DNA of 64,000 nucleotides from Gammaproteobacteria bacterium. GTDB taxonomy: Bacteria; Gemmatimonadota; Gemmatimonadetes; Longimicrobiales; Gaopeijiaceae. Position 1 is the stretch's first letter, and each line of letters begins with the position of its first letter. Where the stretch lies: the NCBI GenBank assembly GCA_028819075.1, contig JAPPMM010000065.1:83067-147066 (forward strand). The letters are read 5' to 3'. Of this stretch, positions 12,107 through 52,901 are shown in pieces. Both the position numbers and the translations under genes were made by a program. Under the pieces are notes generated by a model. The model saw only the letters and a list, made by a program, of their open reading frames with translations, ran no database searches and had not been told where the DNA came from.

Positions 12107-12206
12107 AACCGGTACAGCCCGGAAGTGGTTGCGTGCCGTGTGATGTCTCGCGGATGCCTGGCGATCCGCTGTCGCGCACTAGTGCGGATGCGCTGAACTC
12201 ATCCCG

Positions 12207-13721: not shown

Positions 13722-15250
13722 GAGTCGGCCGGCTCCTCGGCGGGCGGGGTCGTGTGGACGCGCTCCAGGATGGCTTCCACGCTCGGCTCCATGCGCTCGA
13801 GAATCGGCGTGGGCGCGACTCCGATCACGATCATGAGCGCGACCATGGGCGAGAGGATGAAGATCTCCCGGCGGGAGAGGTCGGGCATCGACCGGTTCTC
13901 CTCGCGGTCCAGCTCGTTGAAGAGCACCCGCTGCACCATGGGCAGCATGTAGTAGGCGGCGAAGATGACGCCGCTGGTGGCGATGACGGCGGTGACGGGG
14001 TGTGTCTCGAAGGTGCCCAGAAGCGCCAGGAACTCGCCGACGAAGCCGCTTGTGCCGGGGAGGCCGATCGAAGCCAGGGCCGTGATCACGAGGGCCAGGG
14101 CGAGCATGGGCGCGACGCGTGCGAGGCCGCCGAACTCCCCGGTCAGCCGGGTGTGGCGGCGCTCGTACAGCATGCCCAGGATGAGGAAGAGCGCCCCGGT
14201 GGAGATGCCGTGCGAGATCATCACCACGAGCCCTCCCTGAATTCCGTTCAGCGTCAGGGCGAAAATGCCGATCACCACGAAGCCCATGTGCGCCACCGAG
14301 GTGTAGGCCACCAGCTTCTTGGCGTCCGGCTGCACTGCCGCCACCCAGGCGGCGTACACGATGCCCGCCGTGCCGAGCACCAGCATCACGGTCACCACCG
14401 AGGGGTGCTGGGAGGCGGCGGGGAAGAACGGCAGCAGGAAGCGCAGGAACCCGTAGGTGCCCATCTTGAGCAGGATCGCGGCCAGCACCACCGAGCCCGG
14501 CGTGGGAGCCTCCACGTGCGCGTCCGGCAGCCAGGTGTGGAAGGGGAACAGCGGCACCTTGATGGAGAACGCGAGCGCGAAGGCGGCGAACAGCCAGAGC
14601 TGCTCGCGCATCGAGAGCGACACGCCGAGGATGTCCAGATAGGCGAACGATCCGTCTCCGGCGCCCGCGGTCGCGGCGTAGAGGTAGAGGATCCCGACCA
14701 GCATCAGCAGCGACCCCACCGCCGTGTACAGGAAGAACTTCACCGCGGCGTAGATGCGGCGCTTGCCCCCCCAGACCCCGACGATGAAGTACATCGGCAC
14801 CAGGGTGAGCTCGAAGAAGACGTAGAACAGCATCAGATCGAGCGCCGTGAAGACGCCGATGATACCGGTCTGCAGCAGAAGCATCAGGGCGTAGAAGGAC
14901 TTCCGGCGGCGGGTGATGTAGCGGAACGAGCCGAGAATGGTGATCGGGGCCGTGAAGCAGGACAGCAGCACCATGAACAGCGAGATGCCGTCGATGCCGA
15001 GCGCGTAGTGCACGCCCCACGCTTCGATCCAGGGCACGCTCGACGCCATCTGAAAGCCCGGATCCCCGACCGTGAAGGACCACCAGAGGCCGAGGCTCAC
15101 CACGAAGAGCGCGAGCGTCCAGCCGAAGGCGATGTGCCCGGATCGCTCATCGTCCTCGAGCAGCACGTGCAGCATCGCAGCCATCGGACCCCACACCAGC
15201 ACGTGCAGGATCCAGGAGTCGAACGCGACCGCTTGCAGCAGGCTCGTCAT
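13718..15250 (-). CDS. nuoM: NADH-quinone oxidoreductase subunit M
   Basis: 510-aa antiporter-like membrane subunit (FPFHTWLPDAHVEAPT motif), between nuoL and nuoN. Confidence 0.9.
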   Translation of the reverse strand: MTSLLQAVAFDSWILHVLVWGPMAAMLHVLLEDDERSGHIAFGWTLALFVVSLGLWWSFTVGDPGFQMASSVPWIEAWGVHYALGIDGISLFMVLLSCFTAPITILGSFRYITRRRKSFYALMLLLQTGIIGVFTALDLMLFYVFFELTLVPMYFIVGVWGGKRRIYAAVKFFLYTAVGSLLMLVGILYLYAATAGAGDGSFAYLDILGVSLSMREQLWLFAAFALAFSIKVPLFPFHTWLPDAHVEAPTPGSVVLAAILLKMGTYGFLRFLLPFFPAASQHPSVVTVMLVLGTAGIVYAAWVAAVQPDAKKLVAYTSVAHMGFVVIGIFALTLNGIQGGLVVMISHGISTGALFLILGMLYERRHTRLTGEFGGLARVAPMLALALVITALASIGLPGTSGFVGEFLALLGTFETHPVTAVIATSGVIFAAYYMLPMVQRVLFNELDREENRSMPDLSRREIFILSPMVALMIVIGVAPTPILERMEPSVEAILERVHTTPPAEEPADS

Positions 15251-15260
15251 GACCGGCTCC

Positions 15261-17396
<2,136 letters not shown>

Positions 17397-17400
17397 CCAG

Positions 17401-17694
17401 CTACCACTTGAGCAGGTTGAAGTTGTCCACGTTGACGGTCCGGTAGTGCCGGAATATGGAGATGATGATCGCGAGTCCGACCGCGGCTTCCGCGGCCGCC
17501 ACCGTCATGACGAAGAAGACGAAGACCTGTCCCTCCACGCCCACGTACCGGGAAAAGGCCACCAGAGCCAGGTTCACCGCGTTCAGCTGGAGCTCGATGC
17601 AGAGGAACATGATGATGGCGTTCCGGCGCACGAGCACCCCGAAGGTGCCGATCACGAACAGCAGGGCGCTGGTGGTCAGGGCTTCGGTCAGCAC
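17401..17694 (-). CDS. nuoK: NADH-quinone oxidoreductase subunit K
   Basis: 97-aa three-helix protein (...[17 protein letters not shown]...) in the canonical position. Confidence 0.9.
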
Positions 17695-17704
17695 GCGGCG
17701 CTCC

Positions 17705-18229
17705 TCACACCCGCTTCTTCGCCAGCGCGACGGCGCCGACCACCGCGACCAGCAGCAGGATTCCGGTGATCTCGAATGGAACCACGTATTCCTGGAAGAG
17801 CGGCCGTGCGATCAGCGACACCGCACCCCGCTCGGCCAGCTCCAGGTCCATCGCCGCCGCGCCCGGGAAGCTCTCGTAAAGGGGGCTCGTCTCCGCGCCG
17901 CCGAACCGGGTGGCGAGGATACCGCAGATCGCCCCCGAGACGACGAAGGCGCACACGGCATAGAGCCCGCGCACCAGGTCGTCCCGGTAGTCGTGCCCCA
18001 GGTTCAGGAGCATGATCACGAACAGGAAAAGCACCATGATGGCGCCGGCGTAGACCATGACCTGAATGGCGGCCAGGAAGTGCGCTTCCAGGAGCACGTA
18101 GATCCCGGCCACGCTCGCCAGCGACACCACCATGAACATGAGGCTGGCCACCGGATTCCGGCTCGCCACCACCCCGATGCCTCCGCCCACCACGGTCACG
18201 GCGAAGACGTAGAAGAGGATCAGCTCCAT
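17705..18229 (-). CDS. nuoJ: NADH-quinone oxidoreductase subunit J
   Basis: 174-aa membrane protein ([21 protein letters not shown]) in the canonical position. Confidence 0.85.
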
Positions 18230-18233
18230 CCCC

Positions 18234-18734
18234 TCACTCCGATGCGGGGTCGGAGGGGTCCCAGAGCGCGGTGACCGGGTGCTCCTGCTCCATCAGCCGG
18301 TCGAGGTCGTAGACGAAGCGCTCGCGCGTGTACTCGGCGTTCTCGAAGTGCTGGCCCACGTGGATCGCCTCCACCGGGCACACCTCCTGGCACATGCCGC
18401 AGAAGATGCAGCGGAACTCGTCGATCTCGTAGACGATGGGGTAGCGGTTGCCCTGATCGTCCTCGCCGCCCACCAGGCGGATGCAGTTGGCCGGGCAGAC
18501 CGTGGGGCAGAGACCGCAGGCGACGCACTTGGGACGCCCGTCGGCGTGCACCTCCATGCGGTGGGTGCCGCGCCAGCGGGGATGGAGTTCCGTGGGTTCC
18601 TCGGGATAGCTGCGCGTCACCTTGCGCGGGTTGACCATGTGCCGGAAGGTCAGCGACATCCCCTTGAGGGCGGCTCTCAGGTACGAACTCCGGGCCGCTT
18701 CGGGCCGGCGTATCACTTTCACCGATATGGCCAT
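18234..18734 (-). CDS. nuoI: NADH-quinone oxidoreductase subunit I
   Basis: 166 aa with two 4Fe-4S ferredoxin motifs, CVACGLCPTVCP and CIFCGMCQEVCP. Confidence 0.95.
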   Translation of the reverse strand: MAISVKVIRRPEAARSSYLRAALKGMSLTFRHMVNPRKVTRSYPEEPTELHPRWRGTHRMEVHADGRPKCVACGLCPTVCPANCIRLVGGEDDQGNRYPIVYEIDEFRCIFCGMCQEVCPVEAIHVGQHFENAEYTRERFVYDLDRLMEQEHPVTALWDPSDPASE

Positions 18735-18750
18735 TGCGACTCCCGCGGGA

Positions 18751-20010
18751 TCATGGGTGGGCGGCCGGCGCCGGGCGCGCAGCCCGTCCGGCTGGCGCGG
18801 CCCCGGTGATGATGCGGCCGCGGTCGAGGTAGAGGGCGAACATGGCGGTGGCGACGAGGCTCACTCCGGTCAGCGCCAGGGCGAAGCCCGGGCCGCCGGA
18901 CACCCCCAGCTGATCCAGCACCAGGATGGTGGCGCCCACGAGCATGACGTAGGCGAGCGCGGTGGGCAGCATCACCTTCCAGCCCAGGTGCATGACCTGG
19001 TCGTAGCGGAAGCGCGGAAGGGTCCAGCGCACCCAGATGTAGAGGACCACGAAGAAGGTGGTCTTGAGCATGAAGGCGCCCAGGGTGAGCAGCGTGGTCC
19101 AGATCGACAGCTGCGCCGGGATGGGGTCGCCCGCCGCGGTAAATCCGGAGATGAGCCCGCCCTCGTACGGGATGAAGTTGTCCCCCGACCAGAAGGGGAT
19201 GTCCCAGCCGCCCAGGAAGAGCGTGGCCATGAGCGCCGAAGCCGTGATCACGTGCGCATACTCGGCGATGAAGAACATGCTGAACTTCATGGACGAATAC
19301 TCGGTGTGGTATCCGGTCACGAGCTCGGACTCGGCCTCCGGCATGTCGAAGGGCAGCCGGTTGGTCTCCGCGAATGCCGAGATGAGGAAGAGCAGGAAGC
19401 CGAGCGACAGGGGGAGGATGTACCACAGCCCCAGCTGCTGATCGGCGACCATCCGGGTGAGGGTGACGTTGCCCGCGAGCATCATGACCGGGATCAGCGA
19501 GAGCCCCAGCCCGACCTCGTAGCTCACCATCTGGGCGGAGGCGCGCAGGCCGCCCAGAAGCGCGTACTTGTTGTTGGACGACCAGCCGCCCAGGAAGATC
19601 CCGTACACCCCGAGCGAGCCGATGGCGAGGATGTAGAGCACCCCTACCGGCAGGTCTGCGACGATCATGTCCACCGTCCCCCACGGCGTGGGCAGCGGGG
19701 CGGCGAAGGGAATCACGGCGAATGTGACCAGCGCCGGCATGATCGACAGCATCGGGCCCAGAACGAAGAAGAAGCGCGATGCAGTGGCCGGGTCGGTCTC
19801 CTCCTTGATGATGTTCTTGAGGCCGTCGGCGATGGGCTGCAGGAGCCCGAACGGGCCCACCCGGTTCGGCCCCAGGCGATCCTGGATGAAGGCCGACAGG
19901 CGCCGCTCGGCCCAGGTGGCGTACATGATCGCCACCATCAGCGCCGTGAACACGGCCAGCACCTTGACGGCGGCGGCGATCAGGAAGGCCGTGGACGAGA
20001 GTTCGTTCAT
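18751..20010 (-). CDS. nuoH: NADH-quinone oxidoreductase subunit H
   Basis: Polytopic membrane protein with NuoH-like segments (GPFGLLQPIADGLK, AETNRLPFD). Start set at ATG 20008-20010 (MNELSSTAF...), which overlaps the nuoG stop by 4 nt. Confidence 0.9.
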   Translation of the reverse strand: MNELSSTAFLIAAAVKVLAVFTALMVAIMYATWAERRLSAFIQDRLGPNRVGPFGLLQPIADGLKNIIKEETDPATASRFFFVLGPMLSIMPALVTFAVIPFAAPLPTPWGTVDMIVADLPVGVLYILAIGSLGVYGIFLGGWSSNNKYALLGGLRASAQMVSYEVGLGLSLIPVMMLAGNVTLTRMVADQQLGLWYILPLSLGFLLFLISAFAETNRLPFDMPEAESELVTGYHTEYSSMKFSMFFIAEYAHVITASALMATLFLGGWDIPFWSGDNFIPYEGGLISGFTAAGDPIPAQLSIWTTLLTLGAFMLKTTFFVVLYIWVRWTLPRFRYDQVMHLGWKVMLPTALAYVMLVGATILVLDQLGVSGGPGFALALTGVSLVATAMFALYLDRGRIITGAAPAGRAARPAPAAHP

Positions 20011-39463: not shown

Positions 39464-39467
<4 letters not shown>

Positions 39468-41339: not shown

Positions 41340-43940
41340 CTATCCGGTGTGCTGCGCGGCCTGCGGTTCGCCGGCGGGCTCGTAGAATGCGCGCAAGTAC
41401 TCCTCCACGCGGCGCCAGGGCCCGTGGGCGAGCGGCGCCGGGGGGAGCGAGTCGAGCAGGTAGCGGCCGTAGCGGTACTTGACGATGCGCGAGTCCAGCA
41501 GCACCACGGCCCCCCGGTCCCGGCGCGAGCGCACCAGGCGACCGAATCCCTGGCGCAGGCGAAGCGCCGCCTGAGGCAGCATGAACTCCTGGAACGGATT
41601 CCCTCCGGCCGCCTCGATGGCTTCCATGCGTGCCTCGACCACGGGATCCGTGGGGACGCTGAACGGAAGCTTCTGGATGAGCAGTGCGCGCAGGGGGCGG
41701 CCGGGCACGTCCACTCCCTCCCAGAAGGAGGACGTGCCCAGCAGGATGGCGTTGCCCGCCTCGACGAAGCGGGCCAGGAGCCGGGACCGGTCATCCTCGC
41801 CGTGCACCAGCAGCGGCCAGGATCCCGCTCCCTCCGCCCTGAGCGCCTTCGCCACCGCGCGCAGGGATCGATGCGAGGTGAAGAGGGCGAACAGCCCACC
41901 CCCGGAGATGTCGGCGAGCGCGGCCACCGCCCGGGCCGTGGCACGATCGAAGGAACCGCTTCCCGCGGAAATTCCGAACGATGGCCGGGGCAGGTCCGAC
42001 GGGACGCAAAGCAGGGTCTGCGCACCGAAGTCGAAAGGAGAGTCGATGCGTGCTTCATCGACCTTCAGGGCGCCCACCTCCCCGGTATCGCCGGCGAGCC
42101 CGAGACGTCTTCGCAGAAAGCTGAAGTCCTTGCGCGTGGTCAGGGTCGCGGAGGTGAGCACGGTGGTGCGAACGCGCTCGAACAACTGTTCTCTGAGCAG
42201 TTCGTCCAGCTCGATGGGCGCGGCGGCGAGGTGCAGATTGCGCCGTTTGCCGCGCCGGGCGCTTCTCTGCTCCACCCAGCGAACGTATCGCTGTCCGTCT
42301 TCCGCCGGATCCAGGACGAGGCGCAGGCTCCGCGAAGCATTGGTCAGGCGGCGCTCGATGCTGCGCAGATCGAGGATCCTGCCCTCCAGCGGTTCGCGCC
42401 ACTCGTCGGTGAGCTCGATGCGCAGGGACAGTTCCGAAAGTTCGCGGGCCAGCCCAGCGAGCGCGTCCAGCAGCGCGCTGAAGTTCTCATGCACGCGAGC
42501 CCGGTCGATCGGTTCGGGGAGTTGCTCGGAACCCAGCCTGACGCGCACGCCTCCGGGGAGGGGCGTCATCTCGTCGAGGATCTCGAAGAAGGCCTGGAAT
42601 GCCGCGCGCGCCTGCGTGAGCGATGGGAGCACCCGGTCCGTCAGGCGGTCCAGAAGCGGTTTTGCGGCGGGACGTGCCAGGGAGCCCTCCGGCCGCACGC
42701 CATCCTCCGTAGCCGTGGGCAGGCCGGTGAGCTTGCGGCGCACCACGCCCGCCACGCGTTCCAGGCGGGTCAGCGTGGCGCCCAGCCCTTTTCGGCTCAG
42801 GCTTGCACCCAAGTGGCTGGTGGCGGCGTCCTCGACGTTGTGCGCTTCGTCGAGAATCAGTCGCCGGTACGCCGGCAGCGCCGCGGACTGGGTGAAGTTG
42901 TCGGTGACGATGCGCAGGGAGAGGTCGGAGAACAGCAGGTGGTGGTTCACCACCAGCACGTCGGCCGATGCCGCAACCCGGCGCGAGCGCTGGTAGAAGC
43001 AGGACTGGAAGTGCGGGCAGCGGGCGTGCAGGCAGATGTCGGAGTCGGACTGCACTTCCTCCCATACTTCGCGGGACGGGGCAGTCGCCAGGTCTGCGAG
43101 CGATCCGTCCTCCGTTGCGGCGATCCAGTCGAGCAGCCCGTTGACTTCGCGGGTGCGGTCCTCCTCGAAGAGGGTGGCCGCGCCTTCCGCCGCCAGGTGC
43201 GCGCGGCGGATGGAGATGTAGTTCCCCCGGCCCTTCATCAGCGCCCAGCGGAAGTCCTCTCCCAGAAGCTCGCGCACGAGGGGAAGATCCTTGGCGACGA
43301 GTTGTTCCTGCAGGTTGATGGTGTTGGTGGAGACGACCGTGCGTTCCTTGTTGCGGATCGCCCAGCGGGCCGCGGGGAGCAGATAGGCGACCGACTTTCC
43401 GGTGCCGGTGCCGGCCTCCACCAGGGTCACCCCTCCCTGATTGTATCCCCGCGCCACCTCCGCCAGCATGGCGCGCTGGCCCGGACGATCCTCATAGCGC
43501 CCGTGCAGGCGCGACAGCGCGCCGCCCGGGGCGGCCACCGCCTCCAGTTCGGGGATATCCAGGGGTTCGAGCGACGACGGCGGCGGCGGTTCCACCACCA
43601 CGTACAGCGCCCGCGCCAGGTTGTCGACGATGGCGCTGCCGACGCCCTGCTCGTAGAGCTGTCCGGCCACGTGGAGGTCCGCGTCGGAGGGCTCCAGCAC
43701 CCCCGAGGGGTGGTTGTGCAGCATGATCTCGCCGGTGCGCGCGTCGTTGGCGGCGGCGAGCACGGCGGCTCGATTGCCACGGGCCACGGTGCGCGGGTCA
43801 ACGATGACGCGCTCGGGGGTCACGGTGGCGAGAAAGCTGACCTCGCGCCCGCCCGCCCGCGCGATCTGCTCGCGCATGCGGCCCGCCGCCTCGCGAGCGA
43901 GGACGAGATCGGGCCGCGGACGAGTCCGCTCGGCGGTCAC
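41340..43940 (-). CDS. DinG/XPD-family ATP-dependent DNA helicase with N-terminal RadC-like JAB (JAMM/MPN+) domain
   Basis: 866 aa. Residues ~30-120 carry E(32)...HNHPSGVLEPSDAD, an exact H-x-H-x7-S-x2-D JAMM motif. These are followed by Walker A AGTGTGKS, a Cys-rich Fe-S insert CLHARCPHFQSC, the DEAH box LILDEAHN, and C-terminal helicase motifs (TSATL, SFWEGVD, QGFGRLVRS). Confidence 0.8.
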   Translation of the reverse strand: MTAERTRPRPDLVLAREAAGRMREQIARAGGREVSFLATVTPERVIVDPRTVARGNRAAVLAAANDARTGEIMLHNHPSGVLEPSDADLHVAGQLYEQGVGSAIVDNLARALYVVVEPPPPSSLEPLDIPELEAVAAPGGALSRLHGRYEDRPGQRAMLAEVARGYNQGGVTLVEAGTGTGKSVAYLLPAARWAIRNKERTVVSTNTINLQEQLVAKDLPLVRELLGEDFRWALMKGRGNYISIRRAHLAAEGAATLFEEDRTREVNGLLDWIAATEDGSLADLATAPSREVWEEVQSDSDICLHARCPHFQSCFYQRSRRVAASADVLVVNHHLLFSDLSLRIVTDNFTQSAALPAYRRLILDEAHNVEDAATSHLGASLSRKGLGATLTRLERVAGVVRRKLTGLPTATEDGVRPEGSLARPAAKPLLDRLTDRVLPSLTQARAAFQAFFEILDEMTPLPGGVRVRLGSEQLPEPIDRARVHENFSALLDALAGLARELSELSLRIELTDEWREPLEGRILDLRSIERRLTNASRSLRLVLDPAEDGQRYVRWVEQRSARRGKRRNLHLAAAPIELDELLREQLFERVRTTVLTSATLTTRKDFSFLRRRLGLAGDTGEVGALKVDEARIDSPFDFGAQTLLCVPSDLPRPSFGISAGSGSFDRATARAVAALADISGGGLFALFTSHRSLRAVAKALRAEGAGSWPLLVHGEDDRSRLLARFVEAGNAILLGTSSFWEGVDVPGRPLRALLIQKLPFSVPTDPVVEARMEAIEAAGGNPFQEFMLPQAALRLRQGFGRLVRSRRDRGAVVLLDSRIVKYRYGRYLLDSLPPAPLAHGPWRRVEEYLRAFYEPAGEPQAAQHTG

Positions 43941-43980: not shown

Positions 43981-45264
43981 TCAGGTCTTGCGCTGCTTCT
44001 TGCGAGCCGCCGGGAAGAGGACGTTGTTCAGGATCAGGCGATAGCCGCCTGAGTTGGCGTGCAGCGAGAGATCCGTGGGGGGATCGCCGATCTGGTGCTC
44101 GGGGTCTTCCGGATCGTGCCCGCCGTAGAAGGTCCAGGTTCCCTCGCCCCGGTTCCCGTGGAGGTATTTGGCCCATCCGCCCTCCTGCGCCAGGACGATG
44201 GCGCCCGGCTTGATGCGGTCCAGGCGGAAGGACGTGGTTAGCCCGTAGAAGTCGGAGAGCACGTCCTCATGGCTCTGCGTCAGCATCGACGGCACGGGAT
44301 CCAGCTTGGCCGAGAACTCGAAGAGCGAAAACGTGCCGAGTTCTTCCCGCCAGGGCGTATTGACCTGGTGGCCGTCGATGTCGCTGAACGCGTTGACCGA
44401 CGGAGAGAGCTGCACTTCGGCGTTCTGAAACCCCAGCGCCCGACCCCACTGCATGTGTGCCGAGGCGTCGAGGGCCGGCGGGGTCCCGTCGGCGAAGGCC
44501 GCCGCGATGTCGGCATCCCGGGCCGCCAGGGCCAGGCCGAGCGTCTCGGTTGCCGAGCACATGGCAAAGAGGAAGCCGCCTGCCTCGACGTAGTCCAGAA
44601 TCACGCTCGCAACCGCCTTCTTGAGCGCGGGCACGTGCGGATATCCGAACGCGGTCGCCACCTCCTGGTTTCGGGCCACTTCCTCCTGCAGCCAGGGAGC
44701 TCCCGCGTACGTGATGAAGAACTTGGAATACTGGCCCGTGAAGTCCTCGTGGTGGAGATGGAGCCATTCGTAGTTCTCCAGATCCCCGTTCAGGACCTCC
44801 GGATCCCAGACCTTGTCGTAGGTGATGCCTGCATACTCGAGCGCCATCGTCACGGCGTCGTCCCAGGGCGTCGTGTTGGCGGGCGTGTAGATCGCAACGC
44901 TGGGCGCCTTCTCGAGGATCACCGACTCCATGTTGGAGCGCGCGATCAGCGCGCGTATCGCGGCTACGTCGGCGGCGCCAACCGGCTCGATGCTGACGCC
45001 GCGAAACGCCGCTTCCCGACGAACGTCCTGCCTGTCCGGCAAGAGGAAGGCGCCGTCCCGGTAGTTGAGCAGCCACTCCGCGGTCGCGCCCCGCTCGAGG
45101 CTCCAGTAGGTGAGGCCGTAGGCCTTCAGGTGATCGTCCTGATCCTGGTCCATCGGCACCAGCAGATGCTGGGCCCGCAGGGCTCCCGGAGCCAGCAACA
45201 GGGCCGCGAGCAGCGTCGTCCGGGCCAGGCACCGCCCGCCTCTCGATCGGAAAGAATCGTTCAC
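43981..45264 (-). CDS. secreted hypothetical protein, possible class-I glutamine-amidotransferase-like (ThuA/DUF1355-like) fold
   Basis: 427 aa from GTG 45262-45264, preceded by AGGAGG and overlapping the upstream stop. Signal peptide LARTTLLAALLLAPGALRAQ. The segments VAIYTP...WDDAVTMALEYAGITYDKV...YEWLHLHHEDFTG and GGFLFAMCSATE are reminiscent of a nucleophile-elbow fold. The fold call is speculative. The 727-aa tracked ORF is a read-through over the TPR gene. Confidence 0.55.
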   Translation of the reverse strand: MNDSFRSRGGRCLARTTLLAALLLAPGALRAQHLLVPMDQDQDDHLKAYGLTYWSLERGATAEWLLNYRDGAFLLPDRQDVRREAAFRGVSIEPVGAADVAAIRALIARSNMESVILEKAPSVAIYTPANTTPWDDAVTMALEYAGITYDKVWDPEVLNGDLENYEWLHLHHEDFTGQYSKFFITYAGAPWLQEEVARNQEVATAFGYPHVPALKKAVASVILDYVEAGGFLFAMCSATETLGLALAARDADIAAAFADGTPPALDASAHMQWGRALGFQNAEVQLSPSVNAFSDIDGHQVNTPWREELGTFSLFEFSAKLDPVPSMLTQSHEDVLSDFYGLTTSFRLDRIKPGAIVLAQEGGWAKYLHGNRGEGTWTFYGGHDPEDPEHQIGDPPTDLSLHANSGGYRLILNNVLFPAARKKQRKT

Positions 45265-47045
45265 GATGCACCTCCTGACGCCCTCAGGCGTTCCAGTTCG
45301 CGGCGGGCCACCGGCACGACCGCGCTGTTGGGGCGGGCCAGAATGAGTTCCTCGAGCAGCTCGATGGCGGCCGGCACGCCGGTGGGGGTGGTTGCCCGGT
45401 AGCGGGCCAACTGCAGGATGGCTTCCGGCGCCTCGCTCGACTCCGGAAAGGTGGCGGCCAGAGATTCGCGCAGGCGCGCTGCCTCGCTCTGCTGGTCGAT
45501 TTCGTCGGCGATGCGGGCGGCCATGGCGAGGAGGGGCGGCTGGTCGTCCGGCGGCAGGGCGTGCACCGCTTCGGTCACCAGCGAGAACGCCGCGCCGGCG
45601 CCCTCCCTGTGGCGCGCGATGGCCACCCTGCCCGCCAGCGCGGCCGCCTGCTCGCCCACCCGGTCCAGGATGCCGATCAGCTGCACGATCGCCGTAGCCT
45701 CGGTCGCGGGCAGTCCCCCCGCGGCGAGCATCAGGTTGATCCGGGCGCTCTCCCGGTTGTCCGCCTCGAGCGCCAGCCACGCGCGCTCCTGGGCGCTCAG
45801 CGGACCCTGAACCCCTTCCAGCACGAACGCTGCGGTTTCCAGGTCGCCGTTCTCGCGAAAGCGTGCCGAAAGCGCCACCGCCAGCGGATCGGCTTCGGGT
45901 GCGTTCGGAAACTCCTCGCGGAAGGCCGCGAAGCGGTCGAGCAGCGCGAGGGGAGCGCCGGTCGCCGTCTCCAGTCGAATCATCTCGGCGAGAGCACGTC
46001 GCCGCTCCGGCGAGCGCTCGGGCAGTCCGCGGGCGTACCGCTCCCTGGCCTCCAGCGCGCGCACGGTATCGCCGGCAACGAGCGAGGTGACCGCGATCTG
46101 TCGATCCAGCGTGCGCGCTCGTGAACCCCTCGGAGTCTCCCGGCGCAACTGCTGCAGCGTCCACAGCGCAAGCTGATCGGCGTCCTTTTCCTCGGCGAGC
46201 CGCAGCAATGCGTTGAGGAAGCCCTCGCGCTCACGCTCCGGAAGATCTCCCGCAACCTCCTCCGCAAGACTCAGCGCCTCCGGCTGCAGGCGAGCCTCGA
46301 GCGCGATCTCGATTGCCGCCCGCCTGCGGGTTTCGGACGCACCTTCCGCCGCCAGCTCGCGAACCACCGCGGGTGCCAACCCGGGATGCTCCCCGCCGGT
46401 GCGCACCATCCGCCGCAAGGCCCCGGGCGCCTGGGCATCCGGGCCGTCGAGGGCGCGTGCCCACTCCATGAGGGCCTCCAGGGGACGATCGAGGCGAAGC
46501 AGGACATCTCCGGCTTCGACCGCGAGGACTCCACCACCCGCGCGGCTCTGTCCCCGCCGAAGCACGGACAGCGCTTCCTCGCCCCCGAACGCCCGTTCGT
46601 ACACTCGCGCGACTTCGCGATAGGAATCCGGCGAGGCCGGGTTCTGCGCGATCCAGGACTGCGCCGCGGAACGCAGTTCGGCCAGGGAATCCACCTCCAG
46701 GAGGATCCTCAGCTTGAGGTAGCGGGGACCGGTGGACACGGGGTCGACCGCCAGGAACGCGTCGATGGGATCCAGAACCTGCGACACCCGGCCCTGTGCC
46801 CGCAGCACGCGCTCCAGTGCGAAAATGGCTCCCGAGGAAGCCGGCCGCTCCGCCAACAGCGACGTGAGGATCTCGACCGAGGCGGCGTAGTCTCCCGCCG
46901 ACTCGGCGCGCGCAGCCTCGCGCAGCAGCCGGGATTCATCGCTCGACGACAATTGGCCGTCCGCGGTGGCGGGTGCGAGCGCAAGCGCCATGCCGATCAC
47001 GAGCCAGGGAACTGCCGACAGCCTCCGCCGGGTGCCGTCGTTCAC
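45261..47045 (-). CDS. secreted all-alpha TPR-like repeat protein
   Basis: 594 aa. Signal peptide (LSAVPWLVIGMALALAPATADG) followed by helical repeat-like Ala/Leu/Arg/Glu-rich sequence throughout. The GTG start overlaps the upstream stop and its own stop overlaps the downstream start. Confidence 0.6.
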   Translation of the reverse strand: MNDGTRRRLSAVPWLVIGMALALAPATADGQLSSSDESRLLREAARAESAGDYAASVEILTSLLAERPASSGAIFALERVLRAQGRVSQVLDPIDAFLAVDPVSTGPRYLKLRILLEVDSLAELRSAAQSWIAQNPASPDSYREVARVYERAFGGEEALSVLRRGQSRAGGGVLAVEAGDVLLRLDRPLEALMEWARALDGPDAQAPGALRRMVRTGGEHPGLAPAVVRELAAEGASETRRRAAIEIALEARLQPEALSLAEEVAGDLPEREREGFLNALLRLAEEKDADQLALWTLQQLRRETPRGSRARTLDRQIAVTSLVAGDTVRALEARERYARGLPERSPERRRALAEMIRLETATGAPLALLDRFAAFREEFPNAPEADPLAVALSARFRENGDLETAAFVLEGVQGPLSAQERAWLALEADNRESARINLMLAAGGLPATEATAIVQLIGILDRVGEQAAALAGRVAIARHREGAGAAFSLVTEAVHALPPDDQPPLLAMAARIADEIDQQSEAARLRESLAATFPESSEAPEAILQLARYRATTPTGVPAAIELLEELILARPNSAVVPVARRELERLRASGGAS

Positions 47046-50000
47046 GACCCGCCTCCCGGGGGCAGGGTGGCGGCAGCCTGGTTGAGGCGCTCGAAGTACT
47101 CGATCACCAGGCGCCTCTGCGCGGGGGGCAGGCGACCCAGCACATCCGCCGGAGGAAGCTCGAACCGGAGCGCGTTCAGGTCCTCTTCCGAAAGAGGCCC
47201 TACGACGTTTCGCTCGAATTCTCCGGGAACCTCGGATTCCCGCTCATCCGACTCCTCGTCCCGCTCGAGGCTTCGCCCGGCATCCAGCAAGCGCTGGAAG
47301 AGTTGCTCCTGGCGTTCGATGGTTTCCGCTCGCAGGCGCTCCATCGCGAGTTCCTCGGCCAGAGCGGCCGCCTCCTGCGCAAGCTCATCAAGATCCCCGA
47401 GCGCCTGCTCTTCGGAGTTCGGCTGCTGCGCCAGATCACCGAGCTCGCCGGCCACCGCCTCCTGACCCTGCGAGAGCTGTTGCATCTGCCTGGCGAGCGC
47501 CTGCTCGCCCAGCTGCATCGGCATGAGTTCCTCGGTCTGCATGATCAGATCACCCTGTCGCTGGGCGATCGCCTCGAGCATCTCCTGCATCTCTCCGGCT
47601 CCGCCCGAAGCCGCATCCTGCCCTGACTGCCCGGCGCCTGCGATGGCCTGGAGCGCAACCTGGTTGAGCGCGCGAACCGCCGCCTCGGCGGTCGCGGTCG
47701 GAGACGGCGTCGACCCACGCCGGCTGTCGAGCGCTTCCAGCGTCTCGGTGATGGCCTCCATGGCTTCGCCGATGGCGGTGCTGACCGCGCGATCAACCTG
47801 GCCGGAGGCGCGCGATCCGGCGCTCAGGTTCTCGGCCATGTTGCGCACCCCACGCAGAAGCGATGCCTCATCGGCCCGCATGGCCGCCTGCTGCTCCGTG
47901 TTCGCGCGCCGCATCTGCTCGCGCAACGCGGCCTGCTGGCGCGCGAGGGAGAGCGCATCCTCGGCCGTCTGCCGGAGGGCCTCGCGGGCGGCGGCATCCA
48001 TGGACTGCGTCATCTCGGCGCGCGCTTCCGCCAGCGCCTCCTGTGCTTCCCTGAGCGCCTCGGCCGCCTCTCTGGCCTCCTGCGCGGCCGACTGTGCTTC
48101 TCCTGCCTCCGCCTGCTCGCGGGCTTCGGCCATGTCGCGGCGCGCTTCGTCGGTACGCTCGCCCGCGGTCTGGGCGCGGTCTCCGGCCTGTTGCTCTCCC
48201 AGCTCGTCGAGGTGCTCGCGCGCCTCTTCCATGCGCTCCAGGAGCGCTTCGGTCTGCTGCTCCAGGTCGGCCTGCTGGCGCGCGCGCAGGTCGAGGGTGT
48301 CCCCCTCCTCCATCGCGTCGGCGAGCGCATCCTCCCTGCGCGCCAACTCCGCGGCCTCCTCCTCGGCGGCGCGCAGTGCCTGTTCCGTTGCGGCGCGGCG
48401 GAAGCGCTCGATGGATTCCTCCAGACGCTGGCGCATTTCCTCCTGGTCCTGCGCGAGCCGTTCCAGCGCTTCCAGGGAAGCGGCTTCGTCCATCTCCTCC
48501 AGGTTGCGCGCCATGTCTTCCATGCGTTCGCGCAGCTCCTCCGGCATCATCTCCTCGAGAAGACGCTGAAGCTCCTCCATCTCCTCCGTGAACTCGGGAT
48601 CCGGCAGACCTGCCTGGCGCATGGACTCGGAGACCTCCTCCAGCTCCTGCCTCAGCGAATCCACCTCGGCGGCCAGTTCCTCCTGCGCCTCGAGCGCCTG
48701 CCGCAGCTCCTCCTGCTCCTCGAAGCTCAGCTCCTCCTCGCCCTGCGTTCCAGGGTTCCGGCGCTCCTCGGCGAGCTCCGCCTGATTGCGCCGCTCCAGC
48801 TCGCGGGTCTCCTCGGCCGCTTCTCCCGCCTGTTCAGCCAGCGACTCGACCTCGGCCGCCGCGTCCTCGAGCATCTGCTGGGCCTGCCAGCGAAGCTCGG
48901 AGGCCCCCGGCATGCGCAACACGTATTCCGGGCTCTCGCCGATCTGCGGCGACGGTGCGTTGTCGAGCACGCGCGCCCGGTAGCGGACCACGTCGCCGGC
49001 GAGCAGTCCCCAGTCTGATACGTCCAGGAGCGGGCGCACGAGGGCGCTCCGGGTGCCGGCCATTCCCATTCTGCGCACGACCGGATCCTCGGGCGCCCCC
49101 AGAGACCGCACCCGGTAGGCCACCAGCTCGACGGAAGCGAGTCCGTAGTCGTCCTGAGCCTGAACGACCAGCGGCTGCTCCATCGAGAGAGGCAGAACGG
49201 TGTCGCGGCCGGGAAACACGATGGCGACAGCGGGCACCGAGTCGCGCACCAGGGTGATGTCGAGCGGAACGGGCGGGATCTCCGGACCGCCGCCGCGCGC
49301 ATCGACCAGATGCCAGTGGTATACGCCCCCGACGCGCGGCGTCCAGTCGGCATGGAAGCGGGGGCCGTCGACCTGCAGGGCGACAGCCGGTCCGCCCGGC
49401 TCCTCGACCGCGAGGCTGGCCACCTGAAGTTCGCGGCTGGCGCGTCCTTCCACGCGGACGCGGGTGCCCACCGGAACGCTCAACCCGGGCGCGGATCCCC
49501 GATACTCCTCCGCATACCGGCCGGTGTGGGGAGGGAAGGTGAGCTGCAGGGTCAGATCCGCCACGAACAGCGGGTCCACCGGCGTGACCCGGTAGCGCTC
49601 GCTCGTGCTCCCGTCAGGCGCCGACGCCCAGTACTCGAAGGCGGTTTCCACGGCGTTGAACCGGAACGTTGCGACGCTGTCAGGCATCTGGCGCGTGTCG
49701 GCGCGCGGTACGTCTCCGGGCGCGCGGGAGTGCAGCGTAACCTCGAGGCGTCCCATCGTTTCGACCTCGATGGCGACGTCCGACCCCCGGGCGACCTCGA
49801 TGTCCCCCGGCCGGACCACCAGAGGGGCATAGCGCGGGCTCGCCATCACCCCGAAGGGAGTCGCGAGCCCCGACCACGCGCGCCGCGACCGTTCCGGCGA
49901 CGCGACCCACGCGGAGATCACGGGTACGCTGGCCACCACCAGCGCCCCCGCCCCGAGGCGCATCCAGCGGCCGCTGCGCCGGTGGAGCGATCCGGCCAGC

Positions 50001-50422
50001 ACGGACGTGGGGGACGTGAGGCGCCCCGCAACCCGCGCTTCGGCACGGCGTGCCAGCGCGGCCGATACGCCGGGCGGGACCGAACGGGAGAGTTCGAGCG
50101 AGCTACGCACCACGCCGCGGGCCAGACCGGTCGCCTCCTCCATGGTTGCGGCGACCCTGGCTTCGTCGAGCCAGCGGCGCCGGAGCCGGAGCAGCAAAGC
50201 GACCAGGGTGGCGACCGCGGCGACCGCGAGCCCGTCCAGGATCAGCGGCGCCGCGCTTCCCTGACGCCACCCCGCCGCGCCCCCCAGCCACCATGCGAGC
50301 ATCAGGATGACGGCCACGGGAACGGTCGCCCACAGCACTCCCGCCATCCCGAAGCGGGTTCCGACGTGACCGCGCACGGCCTCGAATGCGCCGCGGACGC
50401 TCGGGCGGGCCGCCGGGCTCAT
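47042..50422 (-). CDS. large membrane protein with acidic coiled-coil C-terminal half (DUF4175-like)
   Basis: 1126 aa. Two N-terminal helices (residues ~26-48 and ~60-80) precede a beta-rich central region of ~400 aa. From residue ~510 onward there is a ~580-aa Glu/Ala/Arg/Gln/Leu-rich low-complexity helical region, ending ...RRLVIEYFERLNQ. The architecture matches my recollection of DUF4175, which is not verified. Confidence 0.6.
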   Translation of the reverse strand: MSPAARPSVRGAFEAVRGHVGTRFGMAGVLWATVPVAVILMLAWWLGGAAGWRQGSAAPLILDGLAVAAVATLVALLLRLRRRWLDEARVAATMEEATGLARGVVRSSLELSRSVPPGVSAALARRAEARVAGRLTSPTSVLAGSLHRRSGRWMRLGAGALVVASVPVISAWVASPERSRRAWSGLATPFGVMASPRYAPLVVRPGDIEVARGSDVAIEVETMGRLEVTLHSRAPGDVPRADTRQMPDSVATFRFNAVETAFEYWASAPDGSTSERYRVTPVDPLFVADLTLQLTFPPHTGRYAEEYRGSAPGLSVPVGTRVRVEGRASRELQVASLAVEEPGGPAVALQVDGPRFHADWTPRVGGVYHWHLVDARGGGPEIPPVPLDITLVRDSVPAVAIVFPGRDTVLPLSMEQPLVVQAQDDYGLASVELVAYRVRSLGAPEDPVVRRMGMAGTRSALVRPLLDVSDWGLLAGDVVRYRARVLDNAPSPQIGESPEYVLRMPGASELRWQAQQMLEDAAAEVESLAEQAGEAAEETRELERRNQAELAEERRNPGTQGEEELSFEEQEELRQALEAQEELAAEVDSLRQELEEVSESMRQAGLPDPEFTEEMEELQRLLEEMMPEELRERMEDMARNLEEMDEAASLEALERLAQDQEEMRQRLEESIERFRRAATEQALRAAEEEAAELARREDALADAMEEGDTLDLRARQQADLEQQTEALLERMEEAREHLDELGEQQAGDRAQTAGERTDEARRDMAEAREQAEAGEAQSAAQEAREAAEALREAQEALAEARAEMTQSMDAAAREALRQTAEDALSLARQQAALREQMRRANTEQQAAMRADEASLLRGVRNMAENLSAGSRASGQVDRAVSTAIGEAMEAITETLEALDSRRGSTPSPTATAEAAVRALNQVALQAIAGAGQSGQDAASGGAGEMQEMLEAIAQRQGDLIMQTEELMPMQLGEQALARQMQQLSQGQEAVAGELGDLAQQPNSEEQALGDLDELAQEAAALAEELAMERLRAETIERQEQLFQRLLDAGRSLERDEESDERESEVPGEFERNVVGPLSEEDLNALRFELPPADVLGRLPPAQRRLVIEYFERLNQAAATLPPGGGS

Positions 50423-51096
50423 GAGGCCCCCCGGGTGATGGCGTAGACGAACAGGTTCACGCCCATGCGCAACGCCTGCTCGCGGGTTTCGGGGGGATCC
50501 TCGTGCACCTCGGGATCCTCCCAGCCGTCTCCCAGATCGCTTTCGTAGCTGTAGAACAGCATCAGCCGGCCGCGCTCGAAGAGGCCGAAGGCCTGGGGCG
50601 GGCCTCCGTCGTGCTCGTGGATCTTGGGCAGGCCTTCCGGGAGCAGGTGAAAGGTGCCGAAGACCGGATGATCGGGGGGGATCTCCACGAGTTCGCGGCC
50701 GGGGAACACGCGCGCGATCTCCCGGCGGAAGGACTCGTCGAGACCGTAGTTGTCGTCGACGTGCAGGAATCCCCCCCCCAACAGGTAGTCGCGCAGCGCG
50801 GCCTGCTCCTCCAGCGCGAAGCTCACGTTGCCGTGGCCGGTCATGTAGACGTAGGGGTAGTCGGGGAGCGCGGGATCCCGGAGGGTGATGGTGGCTTCAC
50901 GATCCGCCACCGGCAACCCGGTGTCGGCTGCGATTCGCTCCAGCAGATTGGCCAGCGAGGACGGGTTCGCATACCAGTCCCCTCCTCCGTCGTACTGGAG
51001 GCGCGCGATGGTGAGCGTCGGTTCGACGGGCGGGGTGGCCGCGAGCACGGCCGCGAGGATCGCGAGAACAATCTTCAGCATCGATTCCTGAACCAC
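50419..51096 (-). CDS. DUF4159-like exported protein
   Basis: 225 aa. N-terminal hydrophobic segment (LKIVLAILAAVLAA), then ARLQYDGGGDWYANPSSLANLL...YPYVYMTGHGNVSF...LRDYLLGGGFLHVDDNYG, matching my recollection of DUF4159. Start is GTG 51094-51096 or ATG 51079-51081. The stop overlaps the next ATG. Confidence 0.6.
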   Translation of the reverse strand: MVQESMLKIVLAILAAVLAATPPVEPTLTIARLQYDGGGDWYANPSSLANLLERIAADTGLPVADREATITLRDPALPDYPYVYMTGHGNVSFALEEQAALRDYLLGGGFLHVDDNYGLDESFRREIARVFPGRELVEIPPDHPVFGTFHLLPEGLPKIHEHDGGPPQAFGLFERGRLMLFYSYESDLGDGWEDPEVHEDPPETREQALRMGVNLFVYAITRGAS

Positions 51097-52000: not shown

Positions 52001-52330
52001 CTACAGGTGCGCCTCGATCTTCTCCTCGAGATGGGCCCTCGGAACGGCGCCGACAACGGTGTCGACGTGCCTCCCGTCCTTGAAGAAGAGAATACTCGGG
52101 ATCGAGCGCACCCCGAAGCGCGCGGAGGTGCCGGGGTTGGTGTCCACGTCCACCTTCCCCACCGTCACCCCACGGTCACCATACTCGTCTGCGAGCTGGT
52201 CGACGATGGGCGAGACGATGCGGCAGGGGCCGCACCAGGTCGCCCAGAAGTCCACCATCGCCAGTCCCTGGCTGTTCTCTATGTCGTCGGCGAAGCTCTC
52301 GTCCGTAACCGTCAGAACTCGATCGCTCAT
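52001..52330 (-). CDS. trxA: thioredoxin
   Basis: 109 aa from ATG 52328-52330, active site WATWCGPC and the conserved IPSILFFKDG. Confidence 0.95.
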   Translation of the reverse strand: MSDRVLTVTDESFADDIENSQGLAMVDFWATWCGPCRIVSPIVDQLADEYGDRGVTVGKVDVDTNPGTSARFGVRSIPSILFFKDGRHVDTVVGAVPRAHLEEKIEAHL

Positions 52331-52445
52331 TCTGGCTGATCTCCTTGATCCCGGTCCCGGGTCGTTCGTACGATGGAAGCGGAGGCGCCGCACCGCGCTT
52401 CCCTGCTTCCCTGGATTTCGAAGTATAACCGAATCTCGGCCGGTC

Positions 52446-52901
52446 ATGGAATTCGACCCCGCAGCGGGGCCCGTGGATCCCTCGCCAACCCTGCCGCGCT
52501 ACCCGGTGGACCATGTCGGCATCGCCGTCCACTCGATCGCGGAGTCGGCGCCTCTGTTCGAGACCCTGACGGGTGAGCGGGCCTCGCCTCGCCGGTCCCT
52601 CCCGGAACACGGCATCGACGTATGCTTCATCGGCGCAGTGGAGCTGCTCGAACCCCACGACCGGGGCGGCGCGGTGGCGCGGTTCCTCGCAGCGGGGGGC
52701 TCGAACCTTCATCATGTGGCCTTCCGCGTCGAGAACGTGCGCGTCGAACTCGACCGCCTGATCGCCGCGGGGTTCCGGCCCATCGACCGCACTCCGAGGC
52801 CCGGTGCGCACGGCGGCCTGGTCGCCTTCCTCCATCCCAAGGGGACGGGGGGAGCGCTGGTGGAACTGGTCGAGCGGGCGCGGCCTCTCAGCGCCCCGTG
52901 A
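52446..52901 (+). CDS. mce: methylmalonyl-CoA epimerase (VOC/glyoxalase-fold)
   Basis: 151 aa from ATG 52446-52448. It has VDHVGIAVHSI, LHHVAFRV and FLHPKGTGGALVELVE, typical metal-ligand strands of the epimerase subgroup of VOC proteins. A generic VOC protein cannot be excluded. Confidence 0.7.
   Translation: MEFDPAAGPVDPSPTLPRYPVDHVGIAVHSIAESAPLFETLTGERASPRRSLPEHGIDVCFIGAVELLEPHDRGGAVARFLAAGGSNLHHVAFRVENVRVELDRLIAAGFRPIDRTPRPGAHGGLVAFLHPKGTGGALVELVERARPLSAP

Follow-up and report, generated by a model that had tools for sequence, protein, structure and literature searches.

Organization of the locus

The present analysis concerns four consecutive minus-strand genes, designated g1 to g4 and together the quartet, which occupy positions 43981-51096 of a 64-kb stretch of Gemmatimonadota DNA (contig JAPPMM010000065.1; ~69% G+C), the whole of which is referred to as the window. 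An earlier note on this DNA, made from the letters alone, had described the genes as a fully overlapping envelope module. The genes and their junctions, in window coordinates, are as follows.

50419-51096, minus strand: g1, 225 residues, exported DUF4159 protein, alternative ATG start at 51081
47042-50422, minus strand: g2, 1126 residues, DUF4175-type inner-membrane protein
45261-47045, minus strand: g3, 594 residues, exported tetratricopeptide repeat (TPR) protein
43981-45264, minus strand: g4, 427 residues, secreted protein with a class-I glutamine amidotransferase (GATase)-like fold
50419-50422, minus strand: ATGA stop-start overlap of g1 and g2, read from the sequence, available at 31 of 41 related loci
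47042-47057, minus strand: GGGAGG, 6 nucleotides (nt) and the GTGA overlap of g2 and g3 (GTGA at 47042-47045), available at 31 of 50 loci
45261-45276, minus strand: AGGAGG, 6 nt and the GTGA overlap of g3 and g4 (GTGA at 45261-45264), available at 50 of 61 loci

The four open reading frames (ORFs) and the ATGA, GTGA and GTGA overlaps that the note had reported were recovered with the same boundaries, both from the sequence and from public gene callers. Public assemblies with an identical g4 carry the same 1126-, 594- and 427-residue calls and the same 4-nt overlaps, and the start sites stand on these calls as well as on the junctions of related loci; the start of g1 is ambiguous between GTG at 51096 and ATG at 51081. 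Junctions were counted as the availability of an in-frame NTGA at the gene boundaries over 90 related loci, and since such junctions are common to many of these loci, the overlap arrangement is conserved and no local accident. Long ORFs on the opposite strand at the quartet are typical high-GC shadows, the coding strand being settled by protein homology.

In addition, a 4-nt overlap was found between valS and its upstream gene in the window (39464-39467), and in one relative rsmI/g1 and g4/dinG likewise overlap by 4 nt. Neighboring housekeeping genes therefore overlap too, and 4-nt overlaps are not specific to the quartet. Translational coupling within the quartet is plausible, but the fixed-ratio co-production that had been proposed goes beyond what stop-start overlaps allow. 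The signal or membrane segments claimed for all four proteins correspond to a hydrophobic stretch at the N-terminus of each of g1, g3 and g4, and to three hydrophobic segments in g2.

Conservation of the quartet and its nested forms

Within Gemmatimonadota the stretch from rsmI through the quartet to dinG is wholly syntenic, which by itself carries little weight; recurrence elsewhere with other flanks is decisive. The order g1-g2-g3-g4 was also found in Eisenbacteria (L052, L054, and L056), in Latescibacterota (L061) and in a genome of the Fibrobacterota-Chlorobiota-Bacteroidota (FCB) group (L072), and the full quartet further occurs at L055, L060, L074, and L064 (32% GC). The order is thus kept in at least four named lineages, in genomes of 32% to 73% GC, and the genes co-occur across several phyla with differing flanks, which comprise rsmI/dinG, SecDF, PriA with a PorZ-like propeller, and M28/M20 peptidases.

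The view of the quartet as one module was borne out in that the four genes are kept together across phyla, but not in the sense of an indivisible unit. In the Bacteroidota loci L053, L077, and L084, g4 stands alone directly after dnaB (homologue at ~10001-11260), and solitary g4 genes, with no dnaB link shown, are also present in Chlorobiota, Kapabacteria, and Zixibacteria loci. Pairs of g3 and g4 without g1 and g2 occur in Calditrichaceae, Ignavibacteriales, and some Bacteroidota (L046, L075, L078, and L081), and g3 is the most constant neighbor of g4.

Regarding the surroundings of the solitary genes, g4 starts 26 nt past dnaB in Prolixibacter denitrificans (L084); ddl and rluD lie upstream of g4 in L077 and L084, with a PASTA-domain gene in L084 too. 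The Bacteroidota genes upstream of g4, suspected from their size to be MoxR and DUF58, turned out to encode DnaB, DnaJ-domain, HhH-GPD, and AMP-binding proteins.

Conservation also differs between genes. Compared with the window proteins, those of L002 and L016 are 66-69% identical for g4 and 62-63% for g1, versus 47-60% for rsmI and 45-57% for DinG, which indicates strong constraint on g4 and g1 above that on the adjacent rsmI and DinG.

An exported protein family with an amidotransferase-like fold

The gene g4 encodes a protein with a signal peptide; its sequence matched nothing in Pfam, NCBIfam or the PDB, the last of which was searched with the single sequence as well as with its profile. 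Its family is nevertheless large and well conserved: at least 8000 sequence clusters (90% identity) match g4, identity is 70-98% within Gemmatimonadota and ~50% to Bacteroidota or between phyla, and the homologues fall almost entirely in FCB-related phyla, with Pedobacter and Prolixibacter among the cultured carriers.

A first AlphaFold model from a shallow alignment had a predicted local distance difference test score (pLDDT) of 61 and gave no significant fold match, while a model from a two-phylum alignment reached pLDDT 83.5 and a predicted template modeling score (pTM) of 0.85. Searching with the g4 model, Foldseek returned STM3548/2gk3 (2.6e-6), STM1381/3soz, lin1909/3fij, the GH42 trimerisation domain, Pdx2, SpuA, and GGP1, with a Foldseek probability of 1.0. 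The top PDB matches with known fold are all GATase1-like, and a viral structure library agrees. The amidotransferase-like fold that had been offered as a possibility for g4 is thus supported by model and structure search, which give a class-I GATase-like fold. Pfam BPL_N, which we take to be a GATase1-like domain too, weakly matches 4 of 19 diverse g4 homologues.

Two conserved sites in g4 are of particular relevance to a possible activity.

44557-44559, minus strand: codon of Cys236, the candidate nucleophile, which links strand 231-235 to helix 237-247; Cys in 392 of 396 homologues
44107-44118, minus strand: encodes His383-Asp-Pro-Glu386, which follows strand 375-380 and resembles an HPE motif; the His is present in 370 of 372 homologues, the Glu in 362 of 371

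In the model, Cys236 is located at the nucleophile elbow and His383 and Glu386 are located where class-I amidotransferases carry their His and Glu. Cys236, His383, and Glu386, being at the expected sequence and secondary-structure positions, may be regarded as a putative catalytic triad. One divergent homologue, P0152, is without both the Cys and the His. Other invariant residues are H45, H172, E173, D174, H332, D384, D387, and H390, which include the motifs HHEDF and HDPEDxxH.

Seven of the 19 diverse members bear a type IX secretion C-terminal domain (Por_Secre_tail), which implies that the family works outside the cytoplasm. The basic C-terminal tail of g4, ...FPAAKKKxxKT-COOH (43981-44010, minus strand), is nearly invariant, the final K-T being present in ~350 of ~355 aligned homologues, and could serve as a membrane-binding, partner-binding or sorting signal. 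In the variants with a type IX domain, part of the basic tail is kept and the protein extends beyond it.

Public databases name g4 homologues 'asparagine synthetase B'. Genuine AsnB, a class-II (Ntn, Cys2) amidotransferase, is cytoplasmic, ~550 residues long and equipped with an Asn_synthase domain. The signal peptide of g4, its class-I-like fold and the lack of any Pfam or NCBIfam asparagine-synthase match identify the name as a misannotation. Papers that combine this name with type IX secretion appear, by title and abstract, to deal with other subjects. We conclude that g4 represents an unmodelled, misnamed and probably catalytic family.

The other components of the quartet

First, g1 matches Pfam PF13709 (DUF4159) with 223.5 bits against a cutoff of 25.9 (E=2.5e-66; model positions 1-201 of 202), so that its description as DUF4159-like is confirmed far above the gathering threshold and over nearly the full model. 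A homologue in the PDB is 4I66 (Hoch_4089, uncharacterised; E=2.7e-15). The protein is GATase1-like but without the Cys; Asp114 and Asp115 come after the GGFL strand, and conserved His and Asp residues are present. Since these two Asp residues are placed where class-I amidotransferases hold the nucleophile, g1 is probably non-catalytic, a pseudo-enzyme. An alignment of g1 and g4 has the helix-GGFL-strand element alone in common.

DUF4159 genes were also observed in other settings. A second paralogue on Gemmatirosa plasmid 1 (L086, NZ_CP007129.1, 9743-10555) lies beside an MFS transporter gene, apparently outside any MoxR cluster, so the contexts of DUF4159 exceed the quartet and the MoxR cluster. 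On the Corynebacterium crudilactis plasmid pCRULAC1 (L085, NZ_CP015623.1, 11980-13167), a DUF4159 gene whose product is 48.7% identical to g1 sits beside a dihydrofolate reductase (dfr) gene, within an IS26/IS6/Tn3 mosaic that holds aminoglycoside and sulfonamide resistance genes. This pair could be a chromosomal fragment captured from a relative of the quartet lineages, pointing to the origin of the dfr gene.

Second, g2 comprises three regions.

49895-50359, minus strand: membrane region; hairpin of transmembrane (TM) segments TM1-TM2 at about residues 22-82, Arg-rich loop of residues 81-156 (~75 residues, 15 Lys + Arg), TM3 at about residues 153-176; from hydropathy and charge counts
48863-49876, minus strand: Ig-like region, residues 183-520, with the conserved motifs YPxYTG, DDxG, and PGDxxxYxxxxxDN
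47045-48862, minus strand: charged helical putative stalk (residues 521-1040, A/E/Q/R/L-rich, net charge -78 by composition) and a conserved C-terminal ~85 residues

The DUF4175-like character assigned to g2 holds for its orthologue group, since DUF4175 (PF13779) matches in 9 of 12 Ig-regions of g2 orthologues (best E=1.5e-22), but the window protein itself, at 15.5-19.8 bits, remains under the Pfam cutoff of 27.3; a MoxR-linked paralogue scores 26 bits. The protein had been described as bitopic, and hydropathy instead gives three membrane segments, a pattern kept in 16 of 18 g2 orthologues and paralogues, one of them MoxR-linked. By the positive-inside rule, the N-terminus would lie inside and the C-terminal ~950 residues outside, in the periplasm. 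We estimate that the Ig-like region contains about three beta-sandwich domains; its alignment profile matches PKD/Ig domains in the PDB (KIAA0319L, 2.4e-6; Robo1, 5e-5), and Pfam Big_7 matches 4 of 12 orthologues. With regard to the huge acidic coiled-coil previously assigned to g2, a charged helical segment of ~600 residues, with a net charge of -78 over residues 521-1040, does exist, but the strong acidity is limited to the Longimicrobiales clade and is not a trait of the family. The tail is 578-615 residues long in 15 of 18 orthologues, across phyla, at 20-30% identity, and this combination of constant length and free sequence suggests that it acts as a spacer or stalk.

Third, neither the window g3 protein nor its Gemmatimonadota orthologue L002 has a Pfam match, and the only NCBIfam match of g3 is TIGR02917 (TPR), far below threshold. 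An iterated hidden Markov model search found g3 orthologues with E-values of 1e-31 to 1e-138, among which seven from other, lower-GC lineages pass several Pfam TPR models, and the TPR-like nature of g3 is supported through these orthologues. The N-terminus of g3 is signal-like and has no lipobox. As a side observation, a masked N run between g3 and g4 in the Ignavibacteriales record L081 could mislead automated Rosetta-stone (gene-fusion) analyses.

Relation to MoxR/DUF58/BatA clusters

The association of DUF4159 and DUF4175 genes with MoxR, DUF58, and BatA/VWA genes, which the earlier note had mentioned, was verified in two places, with DUF4159 present in the first. A region of Gemmatirosa kalamazoonensis plasmid 1 (NZ_CP007129.1, ~731-745 kb) encodes, in this order, TPR/Peptidase_MA, DUF4159, MoxR (AAA_3), DUF58, BatA_N+VWA+GATase1_like, and DUF4175-like (1268 residues) proteins, and a JGI contig carries MoxR, DUF58, BatA/VWA, DUF4175, a 556-residue protein, and a GATase1_like protein. 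The JGI cluster was reached from one of the 11 fragments that a large-database search with the g2 Ig-domain profile returned in all. A plasmid collection searched for more canonical clusters yielded Gemmatirosa and one unrelated resistance plasmid only.

The 1268-residue Gemmatirosa protein and g2 share 30% identity in the Ig region (residues 183-504 of g2), and the comparisons identify the DUF4159 and DUF4175 components of MoxR clusters as paralogues of g1 and g2, respectively. Because identity to these MoxR-linked paralogues is 25-30%, the quartet copies form a separate subfamily. No such relation was found for the other two genes: no homology could be detected between g3 and the canonical TPR/Peptidase_MA protein, and the possibility that g4 is a detached GATase1_like domain of the BatA-VWA protein was rejected since a profile comparison of the two gave no significant similarity. 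A PDB sequence search with the BatA-like protein returned nothing.

The usual partners are indeed missing here, as had been claimed. A Pfam scan of the large ORFs of the window found no match to MoxR (AAA_3), DUF58 (PF01882), BatA_N (PF07584), or VWA, and none of MoxR, DUF58, and BatA/VWA lies within 10 kb of the quartet in relatives, despite their varied flanks. The claim that the components have no characterised function also stands, in that Pfam, NCBIfam, and PADLOC assign no known pathway, with no PADLOC match for g1-g4.

The bat loci of Bacteroides, Leptospira, and Borrelia were named among the closest known clusters. In Borrelia, BB0173 resides in the inner membrane and has its VWA domain in the periplasm (PMC5700661). 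In Leptospira, deletion of all bat genes was without phenotype and a link to oxidative stress was unsupported, and the function and mechanism of Bat systems are not established (PMC3557215).

Flanking genes and other features of the window

The flanks of the quartet are as previously described, with an rsmI-like gene upstream of g1 and RadC/JAB-DinG downstream; ClpB lies past rsmI, and FAA hydrolase and valyl-tRNA synthetase come after DinG. The rest of the window holds housekeeping genes, including the nuo operon, sucCD, plsX, fabD, purH, guaA, proS, and others. A consensus scan placed one terminator-like hairpin upstream of rsmI, the number of such sites not being above that in shuffled sequence:

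52095-52117, minus strand: terminator-like hairpin

A promoter scan gave no promoter-like sites. As no terminator-like site lies between rsmI and dinG, rsmI-g1-g2-g3-g4(-dinG) may form a transcription unit.

The DinG-type helicase (41340-43940, minus strand, 866 residues) has an N-terminal RadC-like JAB domain, and the fused gene follows g4 throughout Gemmatimonadota. It scores strongly against the PADLOC type IV CRISPR DinG models, which is probably generic DinG homology. A strong positive AT skew (0.15-0.25) at 12000-20000 extends over minus-strand nuo membrane subunits (nuoH, J, L, M, and others) and probably reflects T-rich codons of hydrophobic proteins. In a 280-residue ORF at 52059-52901 (plus strand), the glyoxalase domain covers residues 151-257 only, and an overlapping minus-strand ORF (52001-52447), which is followed by the terminator-like hairpin at 52095-52117, occupies the place of a thioredoxin gene in the relatives L001, L002, and L090; the glyoxalase gene is probably shorter than its ORF.

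Proposed function and alternative explanations

Taken together, we tentatively favor, with confidence just short of even, the view that the quartet is a Sec-exported envelope module of FCB-related phyla, an ATPase-less relative of Bat-type systems in which a membrane stalk positions a TPR-enzyme pair. In this scheme, g2 would be a scaffold or spacer fixed to the inner membrane, with its Ig-like domains and stalk reaching into the periplasm, and on it the pseudo-enzyme g1 and the pair of the TPR adaptor g3 with g4 would assemble. The enzymatic step would fall to g4, a cysteine amidohydrolase (an amidase for peptides or gamma-glutamyl compounds, or glutaminase-like) that would act on an envelope substrate. 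This substrate might be a stem peptide of peptidoglycan or some other gamma-glutamyl amide, a guess made by analogy with what other GATase1-fold hydrolases do and the least secure step. No AAA+ remodeling step would be needed in this MoxR-less variant.

Several points weigh against this proposal. The topology of g2 is a prediction from charge distribution, and the triad of g4 is a putative one, placed by sequence and secondary structure. The structural matches of g4 have TM scores of 0.5-0.58 on the target, which is similarity at fold level, with large insertions. The many further invariant His, Asp, and Glu residues of g4 make metal binding possible. Where g4 is solitary beside dnaB in Bacteroidota, g1-g3 are not needed. 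What looked like a g3-g4 fusion in Ignavibacteriales (L081, 1070-residue ORF, 8030-11242) proved to be a masked N run between two genes and provides no fusion link. The DUF4159 literature search returned nothing beyond a Pfam database paper. Finally, genes for MoxR, DUF58, and BatA may be present in other parts of the genome.

This last point leads to an explanation that we consider unlikely, in which the quartet would supply the exported half of a Bat-type system and would still require MoxR, DUF58, and BatA-VWA proteins from genes at other chromosomal sites. The paralogy of g1 and g2 to parts that stand beside MoxR/DUF58/BatA in Gemmatirosa and the JGI contig is in its favor, and at least one member of Gemmatimonadota, Gemmatirosa, does encode a canonical cluster. 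However, MoxR, DUF58, and VWA were absent from the window and from the 10 kb around the quartet in every lineage examined, and the quartet copies, as a subfamily at 25-30% identity, are set apart from the MoxR-linked paralogues.

Of similarly low probability, in our judgment, is that g4, alone or together with g3, functions as an independent enzyme of the periplasm or cell surface whose adjacency to g1 and g2 reflects shared regulation and no complex. The solitary genes beside dnaB in L053, L077, and L084, the g3-g4 pairs of L046, L075, L078, and L081, and the homologues that are type IX secretion cargo would all fit such autonomy, but the quartet order and its overlaps are kept across phyla, with varied flanks and from 32% to 73% GC, a pattern difficult to account for unless the genes are functionally linked.

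We regard as improbable that g4 is no hydrolase at all and that its invariant residues bind metal or sense redox state (compare the term 'aerotolerance'), the module being a sensor or structural element. The invariant His, Asp, and Glu outside the putative triad would suit this role, as would the conserved His and Asp of g1, which likewise has no Cys, and a lone Cys in the oxidizing periplasm could be redox-active. Yet g4 agrees with catalytic class-I amidotransferases in the placement of its Cys at a strand-helix elbow and in its HxPE-like motif, and the oxidative-stress link of Bat proteins is unsupported in Leptospira (PMC3557215). It is highly improbable that the module is an accessory of type IX secretion or gliding, whose machinery is distributed over a similar range of phyla. 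In favor of such a role, g4 homologues are almost confined to FCB-related phyla, 7 of 19 diverse ones have Por_Secre_tail, and in one Latescibacterota genome g1 is directly preceded by a gene for a PorZ-like beta-propeller. On the other side, no NCBIfam or Pfam match to Gld, Por or Spr components was obtained, the secretion tail marks cargo and not machinery, and the PorZ-like neighbor was seen once.

The reading of the quartet as an exported, ATPase-less module has a more far-reaching form, which we consider doubtful. Here g4 would found an exported cysteine amidohydrolase family, near-universal in the FCB superphylum, and in several phyla it would be mounted via the TPR adaptor on a fixed-length inner-membrane DUF4175 stalk with a DUF4159 pseudo-enzyme. 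The resulting complex would span the periplasm, work without ATP and edit an envelope polymer at a defined distance from the membrane.

Significance

Two of the four families, DUF4159 and DUF4175, were already catalogued, and the theme is a variant of Bat-type clusters; new are the phylum-spanning quartet without MoxR, its nested architecture, and the unmodelled, misnamed g4 family. The results imply that the DUF4159/DUF4175 pair can persist without an ATPase or VWA partner and that it is tied to a probable enzyme. DUF4159, DUF4175, and Bat/MoxR-VWA clusters are widespread, yet they have no known biochemical function, and if g4 is an enzyme on a DUF4175 stalk, it would provide a first biochemical handle on these systems. 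The g4 protein is a tractable entry point, being conserved, soluble, secreted, equipped with a candidate active site and present in cultured Bacteroidota. In addition, its database name 'asparagine synthetase B' can be corrected.

Comparison with known systems

Among known proteins, AdvA of Acinetobacter baumannii resembles g2 in its DUF4175 annotation, its TM helices and its nature as an envelope or division protein (PMC7481262). The DUF4175 annotation of AdvA is N-terminal, by the TM helices, whereas the Pfam matches of the g2 group fall in the Ig-like region; no evidence of orthology between AdvA and g2 was found. AsnB has in common with g4 only the name and the general amidotransferase idea.

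NlpI with MepS/Prc exemplifies a TPR adaptor working with periplasmic peptidoglycan hydrolases. By analogy, g3 and g4 are an exported TPR protein and an exported hydrolase-like protein, encoded side by side and probably partners; in contrast to NlpI-MepS/Prc, there is no homology between the two systems and g3 is without a lipobox.

The class-I GATase-like hydrolases (2GK3, 3SOZ, 3FIJ, Pdx2, SpuA/PuuD-type gamma-glutamyl hydrolases, and plant GGP1) share with g4 the fold, the position of the Cys between strand and helix, and a C-terminal HxPE-like His and Glu. Unlike them, g4 has no sequence-family match, is exported where they are cytoplasmic, and is ~180 residues larger, with an N-terminal alpha/beta extension, long insertions, and a basic C-terminal tail, and without a synthase partner domain.

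The closest comparison is with the Bat-type clusters. Both they and the quartet contain DUF4159 and DUF4175-type proteins, those of the clusters being homologous to g1 and g2 at 25-30% identity, and the DUF4175-type proteins of both follow the plan of three TM segments, Ig-like region, and helical tail. A TPR protein, a GATase1-like part (g4 being GATase1-like by fold only), and an envelope location are further likenesses. The quartet differs in having no MoxR AAA+ ATPase, DUF58 or BatA_N/VWA protein, and its GATase-like part, g4, is a separate secreted protein that belongs to a different sequence family.

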